NCBI GenBank assembly: GCA_965649765.1
Contig: OZ287750.1
Coordinates: 30,132,001 to 30,196,000, forward strand
Direction: 5' to 3'
Length of the DNA stretch: 64,000 bases
Source of the DNA: Bispira polyomma
Taxonomy: Eukaryota
This document shows, in pieces, positions 5,905 through 63,141 of this stretch. The notes below the pieces were generated by a model. It had not been told where the DNA came from and did no database searches. It was given only the letters and a program-made list of their open reading frames with translations. Made by a program: the position numbers and the translations under genes. Positions within the stretch are counted from its first letter, which is position 1, and every line of letters starts with the position of its first letter.

Positions 5905-7800
5905 TTTATTTGTATTCACCCCCGCATTTTGCCTTGAATATCTTTGTTTTTACAAATTCTATCAAAATAATTTTTGGCAGGTATTTTTAAATTACTAACA
6001 TTTTACATTTTTACCTATGACCTTTAATAAGATTTGGCATATGCATTATATATACGATAATATCCAGACACCAGTAGATTTGCCGATCAATCGGGCAAAA
6101 ATGACCGATTGACAGGTGATTGATTATGTGGTTTTGATGAAAATCAAATGTGTATATATCTGCTTTATTATTGCTTCTAGAGCTTTTGAATGTATTAGGA
6201 GGGGATAGGAAACTATGGCTTTGGAGTAAAATAAGCCGATCAAATTTTCCCCCCAACCTACCCTTACGGTCAAACTTAGGTAATAAAAGTGCCTTATCTC
6301 TCCTTTATTATTGTTTCTGGAGCTTTGCAATATATTGAAAGGGTATAGGAAACCATGGCTTTGCATTCTAATTAGCCGCTCAAATTTCCCCCTGAACCCT
6401 GTTCAAAGTTAAACTGAAAATGTATCTCCTTTATTGTACCATTCCCTCTCCTGGGAAAACTTTTACAGCTAGGCTCCTGAAATTTACAGGAAATGTTCTT
6501 TATTACAAAACATTGCCTGGGAGTAATTTTGGCCTCATTTCGACGAACAAGATGGCCGCCACAGGCGTTTCTTTGAAAATAATGAGGCTTTTAACTGTGT
6601 CAGTTTCTCATTTGTAGAAGGTTGAATCTCTATATGGGTGATATGTTTATTGGATATATATGTCCTTTATAAGCATGCAGACATTTGACCTTGAATCTCC
6701 TCATTCAAGGTCATCGACAGAGTGCCAAAGTACCCCAAGTGACCGATTTTGACCAAAGTTTCCCTAGTGCCTATATCTCGCTTAATATTGGTCCTAGAGG
6801 TTTGGGATCATAAACAAACCTATAGGATATCATGAACTGGGAATCTTTTTATGTGGTCCGATTTGACCTTGGGCCCCTCGTTCAAAGTCAAATGCAGATG
6901 GCCAAACTTCAAAGTGCCTATATCGCTTAATATTAGTCCTACAGTTTTGAGATCTGAAACCAACCTATTGGAAATCATAAGCAGAGAATCTTTTGATGTG
7001 CTCACATTTGACCTTGATCCTCTCCTTCAAGGTCAAACAGGGATGGCCAAACCTAAAACTGCCTATATCTCACTTATTTTTTGGTCAAACAGGTTTTGGA
7101 TGTGAAACCAACCTATAGGAAATCATTGGCTGGGAGGTCAAATTGGGATGGTCAAACTTTAAAGTGCCTATATCTTGCTTATTATTGGTCCGACAGGTTT
7201 AGAGTGCCAAACCAATCTATTGACAATCATGGGCTGGTAAACTTTCGTGTACTTAGATTTGACCTTGGGCCCCTCGTTCAAGGTCAAATGCAGATGGCCA
7301 AACTTGAAAGTGCCTATATCTCGCTTATTATTGGTCCTACAAGTTTCAAATGTGAAACCAACCTGTACAAAATCGAGGCCTGGGAATCTTTTGATGTGGT
7401 GCAATTTGACCTTTGGCCCCTCGTTCAAGGTCAGGTTTGGTCAAACTTAAAAGTGCCTATATCTCGCTTATTTTTGGTCGTACAGGTTTGGGATGTGAAA
7501 CCAACCTATAGGAAATCATGGGCTGCTAATCTTTTGCTGTGGTCAGATTTGACCTTGGATCCCTTGTGCAAGGTCAAACGGGTAGGCCAAACTTTAAAGT
7601 GCCTATCTCACACTTATTGGTCCCACATGTTTGCAATGTGAAACCCACTTGTGCGATATAAGGCTTTAGCATAAATCCCCTATAGGAAGTCATAGGCTCC
7701 TAGCTTGGGTGCTAGCTAGGATGCTTGCTACCTAAAGTGCTTTGTCTTTCTGGTGGATACAAATATGCATCGGTTCTCCGATGCACTAGGTCAAGTTTTT
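5905..7800 (+). mobile_element. Helentron-associated-like (HINE/DINE-type) non-autonomous element with internal ~146-bp satellite array
   Basis: T-rich ends; subterminal inverted match ATTTGTATTCACC (5908-5920) / GGTGGATACAAAT (7752-7764); 3' hairpin TGCATCGG-ttct-CCGATGCA (7766-7785); internal tandem units. Confidence 0.65.
6760..7650 (+). repeat. Tandem array, ~146-bp unit, about 6 units
   Basis: Anchor (G/C)TGCCTAT recurs at 6767, 6914, 7059, 7164, 7310, 7453, 7599; units contain the inverted motif TTTGACCTTG...CAAGGTCAAA. Confidence 0.9.
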
Positions 7801-9868: not shown

Positions 9869-10924
9869 GTTTTTACGTCAGTTGCCATGTGTCTGCCTTC
9901 GGCAGACAATGGCAACTGATGTTATACCATGGATAGCTTGACTCCCTAGCGATAGCATAGTTACCGGATGTCCGCAGGGTAATGTCCGCTTGTGGCCGTA
10001 GCTGAGGTCTGACTTTTGGTATATGTGTGCATATATATGTGTAGATGGTCCAAAATTTTTTTTGAGCTGAAATATGTATTTGTTGCAGAGATATAAAGTG
10101 TTTAAGGATGTTAAGAAATCAGATTTGAGTTTGCAAATGATTGACAGCCACAGACTGTTCTTTGTGTCTTATGGTGGGGGCAGCCCTTACAGTAGGAGTG
10201 TGCCAATGGTAGTGTTTCTTCCAGGCAAGCCTGTGTGTGTTGCTAGTTGTTATTCTCTTTGATGTTTTTCTCTTAAATTGGTTTTTTCTTCTTTTTCTTT
10301 GTCTAAGTGTGTGTGTAAGCAGCTAGTGTGTGTTGTTCATTTGTTTTTCTTTGGCAAAATATATAACAAAATATTTTTTGATATGGAGGGAATAAATAAT
10401 TTTGTAGGGGTGGGGGAGGGGGTGTCATAAAAAATTCTTTTATCTTTTTTGGGGGTAATAAAATATTTTTTTTTATAAATTTTTTTTTAATCATAAAAAA
10501 AATCTTATATCTTTTTTTGGTACTCTTTTGTAGGGTCATAAAAAACATTTTGTATCTTTTTTTGGTGTCATAATTTTTTATACATAAATATATTTTTTTT
10601 ATGGTCATAAAAAAAATTCTTGTAGCTTTTTTGGGGGTCATAATATTTTTTTATATATTTTTGGGGGTCATAAAAAAAAATTTATTTTTTTTTAGGGTCA
10701 TAAAATTTTTTTTATCTTTTTTGGGTCATAAAATTTTTTTGTTTTTTAATTTTTTTAAGGTCATAAAAAAAAATTCTTGTATCTTTTTGGGGTCATAAAA
10801 TTTTTTATATATTTTTGGGGGGTCATAAAAAAAATTTGTATCTTTTTTTGGGGTCAGAAATTAATTCTTTTTATATATATTTTTGGGGTCATAAAAAAAT
10901 TTGTATCTTTTTTGGGGGTCATAA

Positions 10925-10982
<58 letters not shown>

Positions 10983-11635
10983 TTTTGGGGGTCATAAAAA
11001 AAAAATTTTAATTCTTTTTTAGGGTCATAAAAAAAAAATTTGCATCTTTTTGGGTCATAAAATTTTTTTGTTTTTTAATTTTTTTAAGGTCATAAAAAAA
11101 AATTCTTGTATCTTTTTGGGGTCATAAAATTTTTTATATATTTTTGGGGGGTCATAAAAAAAATTTGTATCTTTTTTTGGGGTCAAAAATTAATTCTTTT
11201 TATATATATTTTTGGGGTCATAAAAAATGTTTTTGTATATTTTTTGTTTTTTTTTTTAAATTTTTTTTATGGTCATAAAATTTTTTTGGGGGTCATACAT
11301 TTTTTTTTTGTATTTTTTGGGGGGTCATAAAATTGTGTGGTGGGTGTGTGTGAAGAGAGGGATTGTCGGCAGCTACAAAGGTTCTGGCTTTGAATTTCTG
11401 CAGGGATTGGTGTAACTACACTTGTCTTTTGTTTTATATCCTTTTGTATCTTCTGTTCATTCTCAGATCATAATACCTTGCTAACGCCTTTACCACACTC
11501 TTGAACTACTTTTCATTACACATCTTCAAACAAATGAAACAACACATCACACCACTACCCATTAACAGTTCAAACACACTGTCAGCACATCTGACGCTGT
11601 GGCCCCCCCGGGCCACTCCATTCGGTTCTTGTTTT
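9869..11635 (+). mobile_element. Helentron-associated-like non-autonomous element with internal low-complexity array
   Basis: 5' T-run then hairpin ACGTCAGTTGCCAT..TGTCTGCC-ttc-GGCAGACA-ATGGCAACTGATGT; 3' subterminal CATCTGACG plus hairpin GTGGCCC-cccc-GGGCCAC (11599-11616) then cttgtttt. Confidence 0.6.
10420..11330 (+). repeat. Degenerate ~30-bp minisatellite (GGTCATAAAAA...TTTTT) with a 329-bp higher-order duplication and a (TA)n tract at 10930-10974
   Basis: Repeated ggtcataaaaa motif; identical ORF starts at 10777 and 11106 are 329 bp apart. Confidence 0.9.
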
Positions 11636-34619: not shown

Positions 34620-35480
34620 GTAGGGGAATGTATTCACTCTTGTCACTGTCAACTTCATCACCAGCAGTTTCATCACTCACTTTCGTTACTGCAATTTGTG
34701 CAAGGGATCACTTTCGTCAGCACCATTTTGGTTTGGGTCACTTTGGTCACCACCATTTTGTTAGGGGTCGCTTTGGTCACCACCTCACTTTGGTCACCAC
34801 CATTTTGTTGCGGGTCACTTTGGTCACCACCTAACTTTGGTCACCACCATTTTATTGGGGGGTCACTTTGGTCACCACCTCACTTTGGTCACCATCATTT
34901 TATTGGGGGTCACTTTGGTCACCACTATTTTAGTGGGGGTCACTTTCGTCTCCACCTATTTTTGCAGGGGGTCACTTTGATCACCCATTTTGTTGGGGTT
35001 CCTTTGGTCACCACCATTTTGGTAGGGGTCAATTTGGTCACCACCTCAGTTTGGTCACCACCATTTTATTAAGGGTCACTTTGGTCACCACCTCAGTTTG
35101 GTCACCACCTCGTTATGGTCACCACCATTTTAGTGGAGGCCACTTTGGTCACCACCTCAGTTTGGTCACCACCTCGTTTTGGTCACCACCATTTTAGTGG
35201 AGGTCACTTTGGTCACCACCTCAGTTTGGTCACACCTCACTTTGGTTACCACGTCACTTTGGTCACCACCATTTTGTCGGGGTTACTTTAGTCACCACCA
35301 TTTTGTTGGGGTCACTTTGGTCACCACTATTTTGGTGGGGGTCACTGCGATCACCACCATTTTGGTGGGGGTCACTTTGATCACCACCATTTTAGTGGGG
35401 GTCACTTTCTTCACCACCATTTTTGCAGGCGTCACTTTGGTCACGACCATTTTGGTGGGGTCACTTTCGTCACCATTTAG
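34620..35480 (+). repeat. Minisatellite of 18/30-bp units (GGTCACTTTGGTCACCACCATTTT...), probably the core of a non-autonomous element; shorter relative at 32020-32270
   Basis: Direct reading; both arrays start after the shared leader tcactcttgtcactgtcaactt(c/t)atcaccagcagttt. Confidence 0.9.
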
Positions 35481-45576: not shown

Positions 45577-47665
45577 ATTATTATTATAGATTTTTAACGC
45601 GCTTTATTGATGCTAGGCATCTTCTAAAGCGCAACAGCAGAATCATTAGTCCAATCATTAAGTCCATGGAATTTGCAAAGTCGTAAGGAAGGAAGTGGGA
45701 GCGTGCACGAGGAAAGCTAAGGTGGGTAGGCAAGATTAAAAAGATAGGTTTTAAGCTTTTTCCTAAAACCGATAAGTGTATCAACTGATCTGAGGTCAAC
45801 TGGGAGACTGTTCCATAACCGTGGAGCTGCAGTGGAGAACGCTCTTAAACCTGCCTTTCTGATTGGTCTGACCAAAGTGACAGAGAGTCTGTTGCCTCTC
45901 TTGCGGTTACTGAAGGAAAGAAGGGAGGCAAGGTAGGGTGGCTGTTGAGTGACTACAGCCTTAAAAGTGGTAACGTGAATCTTAAACAAAATTCGAGATT
46001 TAATGGGCAACCAGTGTAATTTTTTGAGGTAAGGAGTGACGTCTGTGCGACAATCCAGGCGAAAAATGACCCTACATAGGTAGTTTTGGATGGACTGGAG
46101 CTTTTTAATGTTTGACTTGTTTGCTTCGTACAAGAGAGAATTGCAGTAGTCGAGGCGGCTACTCACAAGGGCATTTGCCACAGTTATGGCTGTGTCCATG
46201 GACAAGTGGTTTCTGATTCTTTTGATGTCGCGTATGTGGTAATAGCAGGAGCGACAGATGTTGGCAACATGAGTATCGAACGAAAAAGCTGAATCAAAAG
46301 TGACACCCAGGTTTTTAGCATTTTCGGAAGGTAGTATGTCTTTTCCCAGCAGGAAGATGGGAAACAAAGATTTTAGGAGTTCACTGTTTTTCTTGTTTCC
46401 TATGAGGATGAATTCTGTTTTGTCAGGGTTAAGCTTTAGTTTGGAGTAGTTCATCCACGCCTGGACATCAGACAGACAGTCTGCAAGTAGGCCTATGTTA
46501 GTATCTGCGTTTTGTGGATTGAGGGAGAAATAGACTTGAGTGTCGTCTGCATACATGTGGTGTTTTATATTGTGTTTATTGATGACAGTGCTAAGAAGAT
46601 GTGTATAAAGGGTGAAAAGTAGAGGACCAAGGACGGATCCTTGGGGTACTCCATATGGAAGTTTCATGGAAGATGATAGGTGATCATCTAGTTTAATTCT
46701 TTGTGCCCTAAGAGTAAGGTAGGATCTGATCCATTTAAGGACACTGCCATTACTTGAGAGTGTCGCAGAGCAGGACATGATCGATAGTGTCGAATGCAGC
46801 TGAGAGATCCAGAAGGGTGAGGGCCACTGTGTCGTTGCGGTCCAGTGCAAGATTGATATCATTGCTGATTGAAAAAAGGGCACTTTCTGTAGAGTGAAAT
46901 TTTCTATAAGCAGACTGATGGCAATTTTCAATGTTTTGTCTATTAAGGTGGTCAGAAATTTGTTTAGCTACAGCTTTCTCGATGACTTTTGAGACGAAGC
47001 TGAGGTTTGACACCGGTCTGTAGTTTTTGAGCTGGTTTTTATCAAGCCCTTGTTTTTTAATCAAGGGAGTTACGTTTGCCGTGGGAAAAACACCATCCCG
47101 AAGAGAAAAATTTAATATATTTGTTATGGGTGTGACAAGAATGTCAAGACATTGACTCAGTATAACTGCTGGGATGGGATCTAAGTCACAAGATTTAATA
47201 GTAGAGGATTTGATGAGTTTCAGAACTTCAAGCTCTGACAGTGTACTAAAATGAAAAGGTTACAAACCTTATATCCTGGGGCTGGAGGATTGAAGTGATG
47301 TATCGTTGGGAAGGCGTCACGAATGTTGCTGATTTTTTCTATAAAAAATTTTCCAAATTTTTCTGCTAAAAAAGTAAGACAGTGGTTTATGGGGAGAACT
47401 TTCTTTGATGTTCGATGTAGAATTTTGTTTATGGAGGCCCATAACCTTTTGGGATTATCCTGATTTTCGGTGATGATGGAGTCGTAGTGTTGCTTTTTGG
47501 CATCAGTTATTAGCCTGTTGTAATTATTTGTGGCGATACGGTAACGGCTTCTGTCTAAGGAGGATTTTGTGCGTCGCCATTGACGCTCAAGTTGGCGTTT
47601 GTGTCTTTTGGCCTCTGTAATAGCGGCATTGGTCCATTCATGGGTGTTAGTTGGGGGAAGGGTTT
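45577..47665 (-). mobile_element. 5'-truncated, frameshifted L2/CR1-group LINE (reverse transcriptase ORF2)
   Basis: Overlapping ORFs carry RT motifs KNYRPVSNLSFVSKVIEK, LLDLSAAFDTIDH, GVPQGSVLGPLLF, YADD, KLNPDKTE, LHWLP and C-terminal LKTYLFNLAYPP; (TAA)n tail near 45577. Confidence 0.95.
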
Positions 47666-47867
47666 TTGATAGTACATTAACTAGTACATTAACAGTACAT
47701 ATTTGATAGTACATTTTAGTACATTAATTTTTTTTTCATTTGCTAAAGAGTAGATACAAATTGTCGTTGAAAACATGTGATAAATTTCTTGGTCCTTAAT
47801 TTCTTTGAGAAAAAGCTGGGTTATTGAAACAATACTAATGTAGCATTCACACCATCAAGTTCTCAGC

Positions 47868-58960: not shown

Positions 58961-60060
58961 TCTCTCTCCAATTAGGGGAATGATAGTAACTGATGCTGGT
59001 TGGCTGTTGGCAATCAGAAAAAGGGTTAATTAGCGCTTTAAATACCAGATAAAGGTTATGATAGATACAAATTCATCACTCATAGATTTTCTAATGGATG
59101 TCTTTGTATGACTCAATTTCATGTAGCATGTAAAATCATTAGCCATTGTTAGGGTTTTTTCTAAATTCACTTTTATTATTGCAGTAGACTAACTGTAACA
59201 AAGAGTAAACATATACATGTACATTGAACTTGAGGCACTCTAGTGTCCTTAATGTTTGTATCTAGGCTGCTTATACGGAGATTGCTGTGTTCTCTATCTA
59301 TACTAAGCCATTGTTCTATATCATTCTGTATAGTAATGCATTGTGTGACAAAAGTTACTTTTATCCCAGCTGGGCTGTGGGTGTGGGACATAATAAAAAT
59401 GAGCAGAAGAATATTCAAGGCTTTGCATTAAAGCTTAACATACATATATAATTTTGGCACTTATTATCTTCCAACCACATCTCCTGTAATATAATCAGTG
59501 TTAGTCACACTAAAAAACTATTCAGAAGATGACCTCAGGTAAATCTAGAAATATCACAACAAATAGAACTGTATAGCTTGAAAGAATTTTATATTCAAAG
59601 AATAAAACAGTTTTAACATTTTTTATCCAAGATGAAAGCGAAATAGAGAGTTGATCATTACCAACAACAAGTAGCAAAAACTGGTTGGGTTCTTTTCAAA
59701 ATTGAAGCCAAATCTACTCTACATAAAAATTAGCCTAGTTATCAGAATTATTGATAATTTTTAATGTTTGTGCTTCAATTACACGGAGCTAGAGCTATAG
59801 ATTGGAGTGAATGCCTTTAACAGCCACAATGCACTTGATGTCTGAAAATGCCTGAATTTTTCATATCATCAGTGAATGATGATGCATAATGGGCAGGTGA
59901 GGGTTGATTATTCCTGCCTGGCAAAATGTATGAAACTGAATTACTGCTGTGACAATGCTATTAGTACCACCCCAGGCCTATTTAGTAGATTGATTCAGGG
60001 GAGCATTCATGTTGTAAATGGTGTGTGGGCATTAAAGGTGGAGCTATTTACTAAAATTTC

Positions 60061-60145
60061 AGCCAATCAGGGACTGGCTCCTTCCCCCTAGAAGCAGTGA
60101 TGTCACTGCTGGCGTAAGCAATGGTTGGTGGTGTTGAGTATATAG
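60061..60145 (+). promoter_or_regulatory. Candidate Pol II promoter of the neuropeptide gene (CCAAT box, palindromic CRE-like site, TATA-like box)
   Basis: AGCCAATCAG at 60061-60070; palindrome AGCAGTGA-TG-TCACTGCT at 60093-60110 with core TGATGTCA; TATATAG at 60139-60145, about 440 bp upstream of the ATG. Confidence 0.55.
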
Positions 60146-60585
60146 CTTTAACTTTTTGGTGATGCAGGGAATGAAGGCAAATTGCTACTAGGGAGAACTG
60201 AAAGGTAAACAAGTTACCTACATGCAGCAAAAAAAACAAAAAAACTTGTCAATTGATTTGAACTGTGTTTTAAGAATGTGATTTCATTCCCTTGAAAAAC
60301 GAAAACCCGGTATTTTATTAAGAACCAAAAGTGATTTTATAGACGACATGACTTTGTAGATATTCAGAGCTACTGTGTGAAAGGATTTCTGTCTAGTGTT
60401 TCTGTAATTGCTATAACGGAGGAGAAAATAATTGCAAACAAATTCATTCAATAATAAATGTATATATGTGGTATATATATATATATATATGTAATATTAG
60501 GCCCAACTGTAATTTGAAGGAATTATTGCATTTTTAACCTGTACGTCGGCATAAACTTTCGACTGGACAAGAACATAAAAGGATA

Positions 60586-63141
60586 ATGATGAAACACAGC
60601 ATTTTTTTCCTTATTTTTGGTTCTTGCATTATTTCGAATTTAGCTGTTGCAAAAGTTTGCAACTCTGTTAATTTAAATGATGAGTTTTTTAAGAAAAACA
60701 AGGATGTAGTGGAGTTGTGTCCGTCTGATCAACATAAAAAAGAAACTAAATTTATGTTTAACGGCCTTGTAACTGATAAAGGATGCAATCCGCTTGAGGG
60801 AGCCGAAGTATTTGTGTGGCAGTCAAATCTGGAGACATATCTTCACGAGACAGAATTGTGTTCAGCACGTGTGCATTCCGATAAGAATGGAGTTGTTCGT
60901 ATTCAGTCCATAGTTCCTAAACAAAGAAATACTCTGTCCGACCAAAAGCCAGGTATACGGTTTGAAATTGTGTACAAAGGACATCAGTTTTTCAAGAATT
61001 TTTATTTCTCGGATGAGAAGAATAAAGTTTTGGAAGATAATGTGATTCACGTAGATAAAGATAAAACCCAAGATGGCACCTTGACTTTTCAATACACATT
61101 TTCCCTGCCGAATGGTGACCTCAGCCGCAGAAGGAGAGACATAGACATGGGTGATTCAGGAGCCAGTTGGTTTGATAAGAAATGGAATGACAACGCCATG
61201 AGCTGGTTAAAGAAGAGAAGTACCGATGCCATTTACGATTGGCCTAAGAGAACACAAGCCTGGCAGGAAGCAGATGTGAAGTGGCTGAAGAAAAGGGACT
61301 GGGATCACTCCGCACTACACTGGCTGAAGAAAAGAGATTCAGGAGACAGTAACTACTGGCCAAAGAGGACATGGAATGATCCAGGGATGTCTTGGATGAA
61401 GAAAAGTGACTGGGATAACACTGGAGACTGGTTGAAAAGAGGCTGGGGCAGTGATATGGCTTGGCTGAAGAAAAGAAGTCCTGATAGTAGTGACCTGCAG
61501 GAAGCTATAAGTCATTTGGACAGTTACCTAAAGGATAGCGTTGCTGGTAACCTCCAGAAGAGGATGTGGGGTGATTCAGGCATGCACTGGATTAAGAAAC
61601 GAGACCTGGAAAGTGTGAACTCTAAACTGGTGGAAAAGCGCTCTGTATTAATGGATAATAAAAATAAAGAAGGCGGTGTGGTTAATGCTGCCCCTATTAA
61701 ACCTAAAAATGACATGAAAGAGAAGAAACTTTGGGATGATAGTGGCATGGCTTGGATTAAGCGGGATAATAGTAAAGGGCAGGAAAAGAAAGGCTGGGCT
61801 AATTCAGGTATGTCTTGGCTTAAGAGGGAAGATAGGGATGATAAGGACAAAAAAAGCTGGAGCGATTCTGGTATGTCTTGGATGAAACGGAAGGGTGGGG
61901 ATCCAAAAGATAAAAAGAGTTGGAGCGATTCGGGTATGTCTTGGATAAAACGGGACGATGGGGATGATAAGGACAAAAAAAGCTGGAGCGATTCTGGTAT
62001 GTCTTGGATGAAACGGGAGGGTGGGGATTCAAAGGATAAAAAGAGTTGGAGCGATTCGGGTATGTCTTGGATAAAACGGGACGATGGGGATAATAAGGAC
62101 AAAAAAAGCTGGAGCGATTCTGGTATGTCTTGGATGAAACGGGATGATGGGGATGATAAGGACAAAAAAAGCTGGAGCGATTCGGGTATGTCTTGGATGA
62201 AACGGGAGGGTGGGGATCCAAAAGATAAAAAAAGCTGGAGCGATTCTGGGATGTCTTGGATGAAACGGGATGATGGGGATGATAAGGACAAAAAAAGCTG
62301 GAGCGATTCGGGTATGTCTTGGATAAAACGGGACGAAGGGGATAAGGACAAAAAAAGCTGGAGCGATTCGGGTATGTCTTGGATGAAACGGGATGATGGG
62401 GATGATAAGGACAAAAAAAGCTGGAGCGATTCGGGTATGTCTTGGATGAAACGGGAGGGTGGGGATCCAAAAGATAAAAAAAGCTGGAGCGATTCGGGTA
62501 TGTCTTGGATGAAACGGGATGATGGGGATGATAAGGACAAAAAAAGCTGGAGCGATTCGGGGATGTCTTGGATGAAACGGCAGGGTGGGGATCAAAAAGA
62601 TAAAAAAAGCTGGAGCGATTCAGGTATGTCTTGGATTAAGAGGGGAAATGAGGATGAGAAAAATAAGAAAAGTTGGGGCGATTCAGGTATGGCTTGGATG
62701 AAGAGGGATCCATTAGATAAAGAGAGTTTAACAGATTCAGGAAAATTATCGATAAAAAAAAGAAGTGGGGAAGCTTTTGATACTAATTCGCTGGCTTGGA
62801 TGAAAAAAAATTGGGGTTCAGGTGACATGCGTTGGATAAAACGAAATCAGAACGCCCAGGGTAGGAGGGCATGGGGTAACGAAATGGCTTGGATGAAGAG
62901 AAACAACCCGAGTAAAAAATCATGGGATGATTCAGGGATGTCTTGGATTAAGAAGAGGGAAGAATTTCCGTTCAAAAAGAGCTGGGGCGATGCTGGGATA
63001 TCCTGGATTAAACGGGGTGATGACCCTATGAACCCAGACAAAAAGAGCTGGGGGGATGCTGGGTTTTCGTGGATTAAAAAGGACGATGGGAAGCTTGACC
63101 GCTCCTCGGTAGGAACTTCTTCTGTAACGGACACTAGGTAA
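60586..63141 (+). CDS. Secreted neuropeptide precursor (851 aa): signal peptide + degenerate intradiol dioxygenase-like domain + ~28 non-amidated W-X5/6-W-[M/I/L] peptides (MIP/Wamide-related, WI-peptide type)
   Basis: Single uninterrupted ORF; hydrophobic N-terminus with AVA|K cleavage at about aa 22; aa 55-143 match the intradiol dioxygenase pattern (GxVxDxxCxPLxGAxVxVWQ...Y...SDxNG...SIVP...YFxD); RRRR at aa 181-184; repeated peptides flanked by KK/KR/KKR with acidic spacers. Confidence 0.93.
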   Translation: MMKHSIFFLIFGSCIISNLAVAKVCNSVNLNDEFFKKNKDVVELCPSDQHKKETKFMFNGLVTDKGCNPLEGAEVFVWQSNLETYLHETELCSARVHSDKNGVVRIQSIVPKQRNTLSDQKPGIRFEIVYKGHQFFKNFYFSDEKNKVLEDNVIHVDKDKTQDGTLTFQYTFSLPNGDLSRRRRDIDMGDSGASWFDKKWNDNAMSWLKKRSTDAIYDWPKRTQAWQEADVKWLKKRDWDHSALHWLKKRDSGDSNYWPKRTWNDPGMSWMKKSDWDNTGDWLKRGWGSDMAWLKKRSPDSSDLQEAISHLDSYLKDSVAGNLQKRMWGDSGMHWIKKRDLESVNSKLVEKRSVLMDNKNKEGGVVNAAPIKPKNDMKEKKLWDDSGMAWIKRDNSKGQEKKGWANSGMSWLKREDRDDKDKKSWSDSGMSWMKRKGGDPKDKKSWSDSGMSWIKRDDGDDKDKKSWSDSGMSWMKREGGDSKDKKSWSDSGMSWIKRDDGDNKDKKSWSDSGMSWMKRDDGDDKDKKSWSDSGMSWMKREGGDPKDKKSWSDSGMSWMKRDDGDDKDKKSWSDSGMSWIKRDEGDKDKKSWSDSGMSWMKRDDGDDKDKKSWSDSGMSWMKREGGDPKDKKSWSDSGMSWMKRDDGDDKDKKSWSDSGMSWMKRQGGDQKDKKSWSDSGMSWIKRGNEDEKNKKSWGDSGMAWMKRDPLDKESLTDSGKLSIKKRSGEAFDTNSLAWMKKNWGSGDMRWIKRNQNAQGRRAWGNEMAWMKRNNPSKKSWDDSGMSWIKKREEFPFKKSWGDAGISWIKRGDDPMNPDKKSWGDAGFSWIKKDDGKLDRSSVGTSSVTDTR
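61826..62640 (+). repeat. Coding tandem repeat, 63-bp unit (one 60-bp unit), 13 copies, encoding spacer-KK-SWSDSGMSW[M/I]-KR
   Basis: Near-identical units aaaaaaagctggagcgattc(t/g)ggtatgtcttggatgaaacgg read directly; 9 copies end in WM and 4 in WI. Confidence 0.97.

Follow-up and report, generated by a model that had tools for sequence, protein, structure and literature searches.

The locus considered here lies near the end of a stretch of 64,000 nucleotides of the Bispira polyomma genome (the window; assembly GCA_965649765.1, contig OZ287750.1, positions 30,132,001 to 30,196,000). It codes for a long series of short peptides, most of which carry two tryptophans in the spacing of the MIP/allatostatin B peptides and none of which has the glycine needed for amidation. 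Two questions are raised by this arrangement. The first is whether the gene is a MIP gene that has lost its glycines or a member of a separate family, and the second is what the protein region in front of the peptides represents.

The precursor and its peptides

The gene is an uninterrupted open reading frame on the forward strand (60586..63141). Two adjacent ATG codons are found at 60586 and 60589, and the stop codon occupies 63139-63141. The protein has 850 residues when counted from the ATG at 60589; the frame as a whole is open from stop to stop between 60538 and 63141. A signal peptide is predicted from hydrophobicity for residues 1-21 (60589..60651, forward strand). It ends in A-V-A, the cleavage site being assigned by eye. 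These residues form the sole strongly hydrophobic stretch of the protein, with an 11-residue Kyte-Doolittle maximum of 2.86 at residue 5 and no value above 1.6 past residue 25. A domain of about 160 residues follows, and its C-terminal border is formed by RRRR, a furin-type R-X-X-R site (61126..61137, forward strand). The coordinates given in the first-pass annotation cover the peptide region that starts behind this site; the 183 residues that precede this region (60589-61137), and with them the domain, are left out.

The peptides were delimited by splitting the reading frame at runs of at least two Lys or Arg residues. This gives 32 segments that contain Trp, all of them between 61138 and 63075. 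Two tryptophans are found in 28 of them and one in the other four, and the segments are arranged in two blocks on the forward strand. The first block (61138..61593) is diverse and consists mostly of peptides ending in WL, WM or WI, together with single-Trp variants and a few spacers. In the second block (61729..63075), peptides of the form xWxDSGM[S/A]W[M/I] alternate with short acidic spacers. A 63-bp tandem array (61802..62702, forward strand; 14.3 copies with 85% matches) runs through it, its unit being one peptide plus one spacer.

The spacing is W-X6-W in 25 of the two-Trp peptides and W-X5-W in three, as the first-pass annotation had described it, and its counts of nine copies of SWSDSGMSWM and four of SWSDSGMSWI were reproduced. 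The residue after the last tryptophan of these 28 peptides is Met (12), Ile (10) or Leu (6). The earlier statement that no other residue occupies this position is thus accurate for the two-Trp peptides but fails for three of the four single-Trp segments; two of the latter end in WP, as had been reported, and the remaining two in WFD and WM. The decayed unit SLTDSGKLSI is likewise present, inside residues 707-722. The amidation glycine is indeed missing, because a tryptophan followed by glycine and a basic residue does not occur anywhere in the reading frame. The reading frame has 28 instances of the pattern W-X5-7-W-[ILM]-basic-basic, the six frames of window positions 1-60500 have none, and shuffling the peptide region 2000 times gave 0.09 on average and three at most. 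A query with the N-terminal domain found the window locus only in the genome (1.035 Gb, 75 contigs).

Contigs of a related organism (run X4) provide a view of how the gene varies. They differ at 60 positions, 40 of which were listed, and 39 of those listed are coding changes. A glycine after a tryptophan is created by none of these 39 changes. Among the listed differences, six are silent and five change the protein in the peptides, compared to ten and ten in the spacers, which gives no clear signal of selection. Within window positions 61882-62895, four of the five amino acid changes in peptides replace the terminal Met by Ile.

Elsewhere the window contains three overlapping frames on the reverse strand (45717-47723) that, by eye, resemble the reverse transcriptase of a LINE retroelement and are broken by frameshifts. 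Tandem arrays are found at 6766-7645, 10526-11308 and 34703-35475, with repeat units of roughly 143-145, 30-33 and 17/30/47 bases, respectively.

The WI family and a separate MIP-like gene

A proneuropeptide named WI has been described from Platynereis and Capitella, with the motif x-W-x6-7-W-[G/I/L] (Conzelmann et al. 2013, PMC3890597). The Platynereis precursor gives 'non-amidated W[I/L] peptides' and clusters with MIP, and the only other species in which it was reported is Capitella (PMC3890597). Judged by its sequence, the gene in the window is a WI proneuropeptide, a further copy of this known annelid family. The first-pass annotation had proposed a sister family of MIP/allatostatin B with free-acid peptides; this was right, but the family had already been published as WI (PMC3890597).

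The Platynereis precursor (GenBank KF515919) has the same layout as the window gene. A signal peptide, a Cys-bearing N-terminal region and an R-X-X-R site, recognized by eye, are followed by a diverse WL block and then by a repetitive block of xWGDSGM[A/S]WI peptides with acidic spacers, all of them without the amidation glycine. Some peptides are nearly identical, for instance SWGDSGMAWI in Platynereis and SWGDSGMAWM in the window. The window gene differs in its length of 850 residues, in having 12 of 28 peptides that end in WM, and in having mostly Ser at position 3.

The Bispira polyomma genome contains, in addition, an amidated MIP-like precursor (L009:358-3168; contig C7, approximately 38002350-38005160, reverse strand), encoded by one open frame of 936 residues from stop to stop. 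It holds 33 glycine-extended Trp peptides and has no dioxygenase-like domain. Since this separate gene exists, the gene in the window is not a MIP gene with lost glycines. The peptides of the MIP-like precursor are themselves unusual, as 27 of the 33 would end in Phe-amide (WGGQSSRMF, 21 copies) and six in Trp-amide. The shift from Trp to Phe is located at the position that is essential for gating of the MIP channel in Platynereis (10.1101/261990).

Homologs of the window gene were sought with the peptide region. After 7986 candidates were scored, five homologs remained (P0010-P0014), two of which come from the annelids Paralvinella (P0010, E 7e-93) and Ridgeia (P0011, E 2e-44). A metagenome scan reduced 438 pattern matches to 11 loci, two of which are full-length (L010 and L011). 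The eight full-length precursors, including that of the window, contain 163 two-Trp peptides and not a single W-G-basic site, and all homologs that have a name are annelid. Five other metagenome loci (L016-L020) have short frames, split by stops, with units of the form RRWEKSG[M/V/L][S/A]W[M/I]KR; these loci are possibly an intron-split or divergent form of WI.

Information on the products comes from Platynereis, where the mass spectrometry table has six rows derived from WI (PMC3890597). One of them, NSMSDDSSRDWL, is a WL-ending peptide that carries no amide mark, and another, NVHDYELYNDDD, begins directly after the R-Q-T-R sequence that closes the N-terminal domain. None of the six rows is a two-Trp peptide. 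Both the dibasic sites and the R-X-X-R motif that follows the domain are thus cleaved in the Platynereis ortholog (PMC3890597). Processing of the same kind, by furin or prohormone convertases together with a carboxypeptidase, is very probable in Bispira polyomma. The predicted signal peptide would direct the precursor into the secretory path, the domain would be freed at RRRR, and prohormone convertases and a carboxypeptidase would cut the array into about 30 free-acid peptides.

The idea that the repeats form a structural or adhesive Trp-rich protein, rather than neuropeptides, draws on the tandem array of near-identical units and on the low level of WI RNA in whole-body Platynereis stages (0-2.3 RPKM, PMC3890597). 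It is highly improbable, because dibasic sites bound every unit, processed products including a free-acid WL peptide were found in Platynereis, and the nerve-cord transcriptome of an earthworm contains two WI-like contigs (PMC5688751). An unprocessed structural repeat protein, which the first-pass annotation had named as the outcome that would overturn its proposal, is hence argued against by the Platynereis data. Other surveys gave little on the family. Two WI motifs, sought in the accessible supplement of Thiel et al. 2021 (PMC8557429), occur in the Platynereis entry only, and WI peptides have no match in the eLife 2017 supplements.

The first-pass annotation had further suggested a different receptor, or a different pharmacology at the MIP/sex-peptide receptor; the accessible literature contains no data on a receptor for WI peptides. 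The likeliest candidate belongs to the MIP clade, given that MIP cannot gate the MGIC channel without its C-terminal Trp (10.1101/261990) and that sex peptide, which is not amidated, acts on the MIP receptor through two tryptophans (PMC7270403). By this analogy, a G protein-coupled receptor of the MIP clade is a somewhat favored candidate for the target.

The N-terminal domain and the iron site

The domain between the signal peptide and RRRR (residues 22-179; 60652..61125, forward strand) appears to be a β-sandwich of the intradiol dioxygenase type that lacks the iron ligands and contains Cys24, Cys44, Cys66 and Cys91. The similarity of the window domain alone is low. It matches the Pfam family PF00775 (Dioxygenase_C) with an E value of 1.2e-4 and 22 bits, below the cut-off of 27.3, and its best E value against the Protein Data Bank (PDB) is 0.14. 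Dioxygenase_C is nevertheless matched in seven of the eight WI precursors. It is found in four of the five database homologs, and P0011 and P0014 score above the Pfam threshold; the Paralvinella protein P0010 has no match. The seven N-terminal domains other than that of P0010 were combined in an alignment (A3), whose members all match Dioxygenase_C at E≤0.1, the best at 7e-9. The profile made from this alignment has 23 matches in the PDB at E≤0.001, all of which are intradiol dioxygenases (best E 1.9e-9), and it matches PcaH with an E value of 2e-9 over about 90 positions. In the ESM Atlas, Dioxygenase_C is present in 29 of the 30 neighbors listed, with a score of 0.94.

Structure prediction agrees with these results. 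The single-sequence model of the domain is poor (pLDDT 37.5); a model made from a six-sequence alignment (A2) has a pLDDT of 68 and a pTM of 0.67. With the latter, the best Foldseek matches listed are catechol dioxygenases (E 6e-4, TM 0.4-0.5), three of them at E≤0.001. The top catechol dioxygenase found by VIA-align has a Z score of 7.0 with an rmsd of 3.9 over 108 aligned residues, although a C2 domain is tied with it at 6.6. The assignment is therefore based on the sequence profile, with which the structure search agrees without being sufficient by itself, and on this profile the domain is a descendant of the intradiol ring-cleavage dioxygenases. An origin from carboxypeptidase-regulatory or transthyretin-like domains was ranked lower, because such domains matched only five of the seven members of the alignment, at best with 4e-5, compared to seven of seven and 7e-9 for Dioxygenase_C. 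Bacterial contamination or misassembly was rejected as well: the gene is a single reading frame, contigs of three sequencing runs, which may be the assembly's own source, span positions 60000-61864 without a difference, and the fusion is also found in other species.

The donor of the domain may still be present in animals. The nearest Atlas structure to the Ridgeia domain belongs to a cluster of stand-alone proteins of 212 residues (TM 0.73 over 166 residues), annotated as 'protocatechuate 3,4-dioxygenase beta chain-like'. It has 135 members, 86% of them eukaryotic and mostly molluscan, and such a protein is a possible donor, as far as predicted structures can tell. Bacterial clusters are equally close (TM 0.70-0.75), and the domain may stem either from a gene already present in animals or from a separate transfer. 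The intradiol dioxygenases described by Njiru et al. 2022 (PMC9167512) are bacterial and fungal and were acquired by mites; the available part of that text mentions neither molluscs nor annelids. A stand-alone dioxygenase was not found in the Bispira polyomma genome with PF00775 or PcaH, queries that also missed the domain in the window.

We take the Fe(III) ligands to be Tyr408, Tyr447, His460 and His462, a numbering that fits the Y408 and Y447 mutants in PDB titles. The corresponding columns were read against PcaH from an Azospirillum plasmid for the seven aligned domains. All seven show a gap in place of Tyr447. His462 is kept in none, His460 and Tyr408 are kept in one domain each, and no domain retains more than one of the four ligands. 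The window domain has Leu, a gap, Gly and Arg at the four positions in the above order, with a Tyr one column off the Tyr408 position. It is thus very likely, from the residues at these positions, that the domain has no catalytic activity. The invariant columns comprise three Cys, two Gly and one Asp. A fourth Cys, near the N terminus, is present in most of the domains. The cysteines presumably form disulfides that hold the domain together.

The non-catalytic α chain PcaG, which has no ligands of its own and in which the same Tyr447 loop is absent, is the protein that the WI domain resembles most closely in behavior. PcaG is a natural partner of a catalytic chain, and the stand-alone, mostly molluscan cluster shows that dioxygenase-like proteins exist outside the fusion. 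Both facts could be taken to mean that the WI domain has kept an enzymatic function, either through a rebuilt metal site or as an α-like partner of an active dioxygenase chain. This is very improbable, however, as H-x-H is found at the ligand position in none of the seven domains and no other conserved His or Tyr column replaces it.

The other domains are only 21-23% identical to that of the window, and an R-X-X-R site lies behind the N-terminal region in seven of the eight full-length precursors. The Platynereis precursor has, by eye, matching strand motifs and four cysteines. The domain of P0012 carries insertions. Residues ~25-150 of the Paralvinella protein P0010 hold a shortened version, which keeps two Cys as well as the core residues Asp, Gly and Pro.

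Searches with the domain added few relatives. A word search of a large protein collection with the domain alone gave 144 candidates, none of which scored, and phmmer against 1.84 billion representatives gave seven weak matches, of which three were inspected and proved to be repeat proteins that are unrelated. Apart from P0013 and P0011, a profile search of longer proteins found only six weak matches, which are multi-domain and have prealbumin-like Pfam sets; it missed P0012 and P0014 and, being insensitive, says nothing about fusions in other phyla.

The peptides themselves are an addition to a family known since 2013, whereas the conserved pseudo-dioxygenase pro-domain is apparently an unreported feature of the whole WI family. 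No link between WI neuropeptides and a dioxygenase domain was found in the accessible literature, in which two papers name WI neuropeptides. None of PMC3890597, PMC8557429, PMC6425005 and PMC5688751 uses the word 'dioxygenase' in its main text, and 'domain' does not occur in the accessible supplement S8 of PMC3890597, where the N-terminal domain is unannotated. The one paper found that pairs 'dioxygenase domain' with 'neuropeptide precursor' concerns TauD. The UniRef name of the Ridgeia protein, 'intradiol ring-cleavage dioxygenase domain-containing protein', is automatic and makes no neuropeptide link. Because of the fused N-terminal domain, WI precursors can hide in databases under such names. 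A domain that stems from an enzyme, has lost its ligands and is kept in several annelid lineages would be a rare recruitment of a metabolic fold into peptide signaling, and it extends the animal genes derived from intradiol dioxygenases beyond the spider-mite case. Platynereis renders the fusion directly testable.

Possible roles of the freed domain and related systems

Overall, the locus is probably best explained as a WI precursor in which a dioxygenase-derived domain is cut off at RRRR and 32 Trp peptides are released as free acids, the domain likely serving as a carrier or sorting aid. By analogy, a neurophysin-like piece that packs or carries the peptides is the single likeliest role, and it is put forward tentatively. 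The retention of the domain in seven of eight precursors, its invariant cysteines and the clean cleavage site favor it. The decay in P0010, the low identity and the MIP precursors, which make similar peptides without such a domain, count against it, and the decay in particular weakens the case for an essential carrier.

The same observations can be read in two further ways, both of them doubtful. The freed domain might be an independent secreted product that binds catechols, other aromatic compounds or a receptor, and is co-released with the peptides. The furin-type site sets it apart from the peptides, a Platynereis peptide indicates a cut behind it (PMC3890597), catechols are the ancestral ligands of the fold, and the Tyr447 loop is likewise absent from the non-catalytic PcaG chain. 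On the other hand, the domains have diverged widely, their pocket has no invariant polar residue beyond the structural Gly, Asp and Cys, and the domain of P0010 has decayed. Alternatively, the domain might be a passive relic. In this case, a secreted dioxygenase-like gene would have lent its signal peptide and first exon to a MIP duplicate, and the domain would be kept only because sufficient folding is needed to pass quality control in the endoplasmic reticulum. The purely structural nature of the invariant residues fits a relic, as does the tolerance of insertions in P0012 and of decay in P0010. Nevertheless, the fold and the cysteines are kept in seven of eight precursors and, by eye, in Platynereis, a short acidic spacer suffices in MIP precursors, and one would expect a domain without use to be lost.

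The carrier role can be extended to a history of the gene, which is possible but speculative. In annelids, a MIP duplicate would have fused to an intradiol dioxygenase, whose iron site was then destroyed and whose fold was stapled by disulfides. The aromatic pocket would hold the Trp ends of the WI peptides, and the carrier would thus replace amidation as their protection.

The window gene shares the W-X6-W spacing, the dibasic cleavage sites and the repetitive precursor with the MIP, allatostatin B and Wamide genes; MIPs, however, end in W-G-basic and are amidated, whereas the window gene has no such site. The modeled domain has the same strand order as the intradiol dioxygenases (PcaH/PcaG, catechol 1,2-dioxygenase and the spider-mite DOGs), but it has extra invariant cysteines and is fused to a peptide array. 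The closest functional parallel would be neurophysin, which is part of the vasopressin and oxytocin precursors. Neurophysin is a folded domain held by disulfides, is cut off at a basic site and binds the peptide. The putative WI carrier would likewise be a disulfide-held folded domain made in the same precursor as its peptides. The two folds are unrelated, and neurophysin is located after one peptide, whereas the WI domain precedes about 30. Peptide binding is established for neurophysin and hypothetical for the WI domain.
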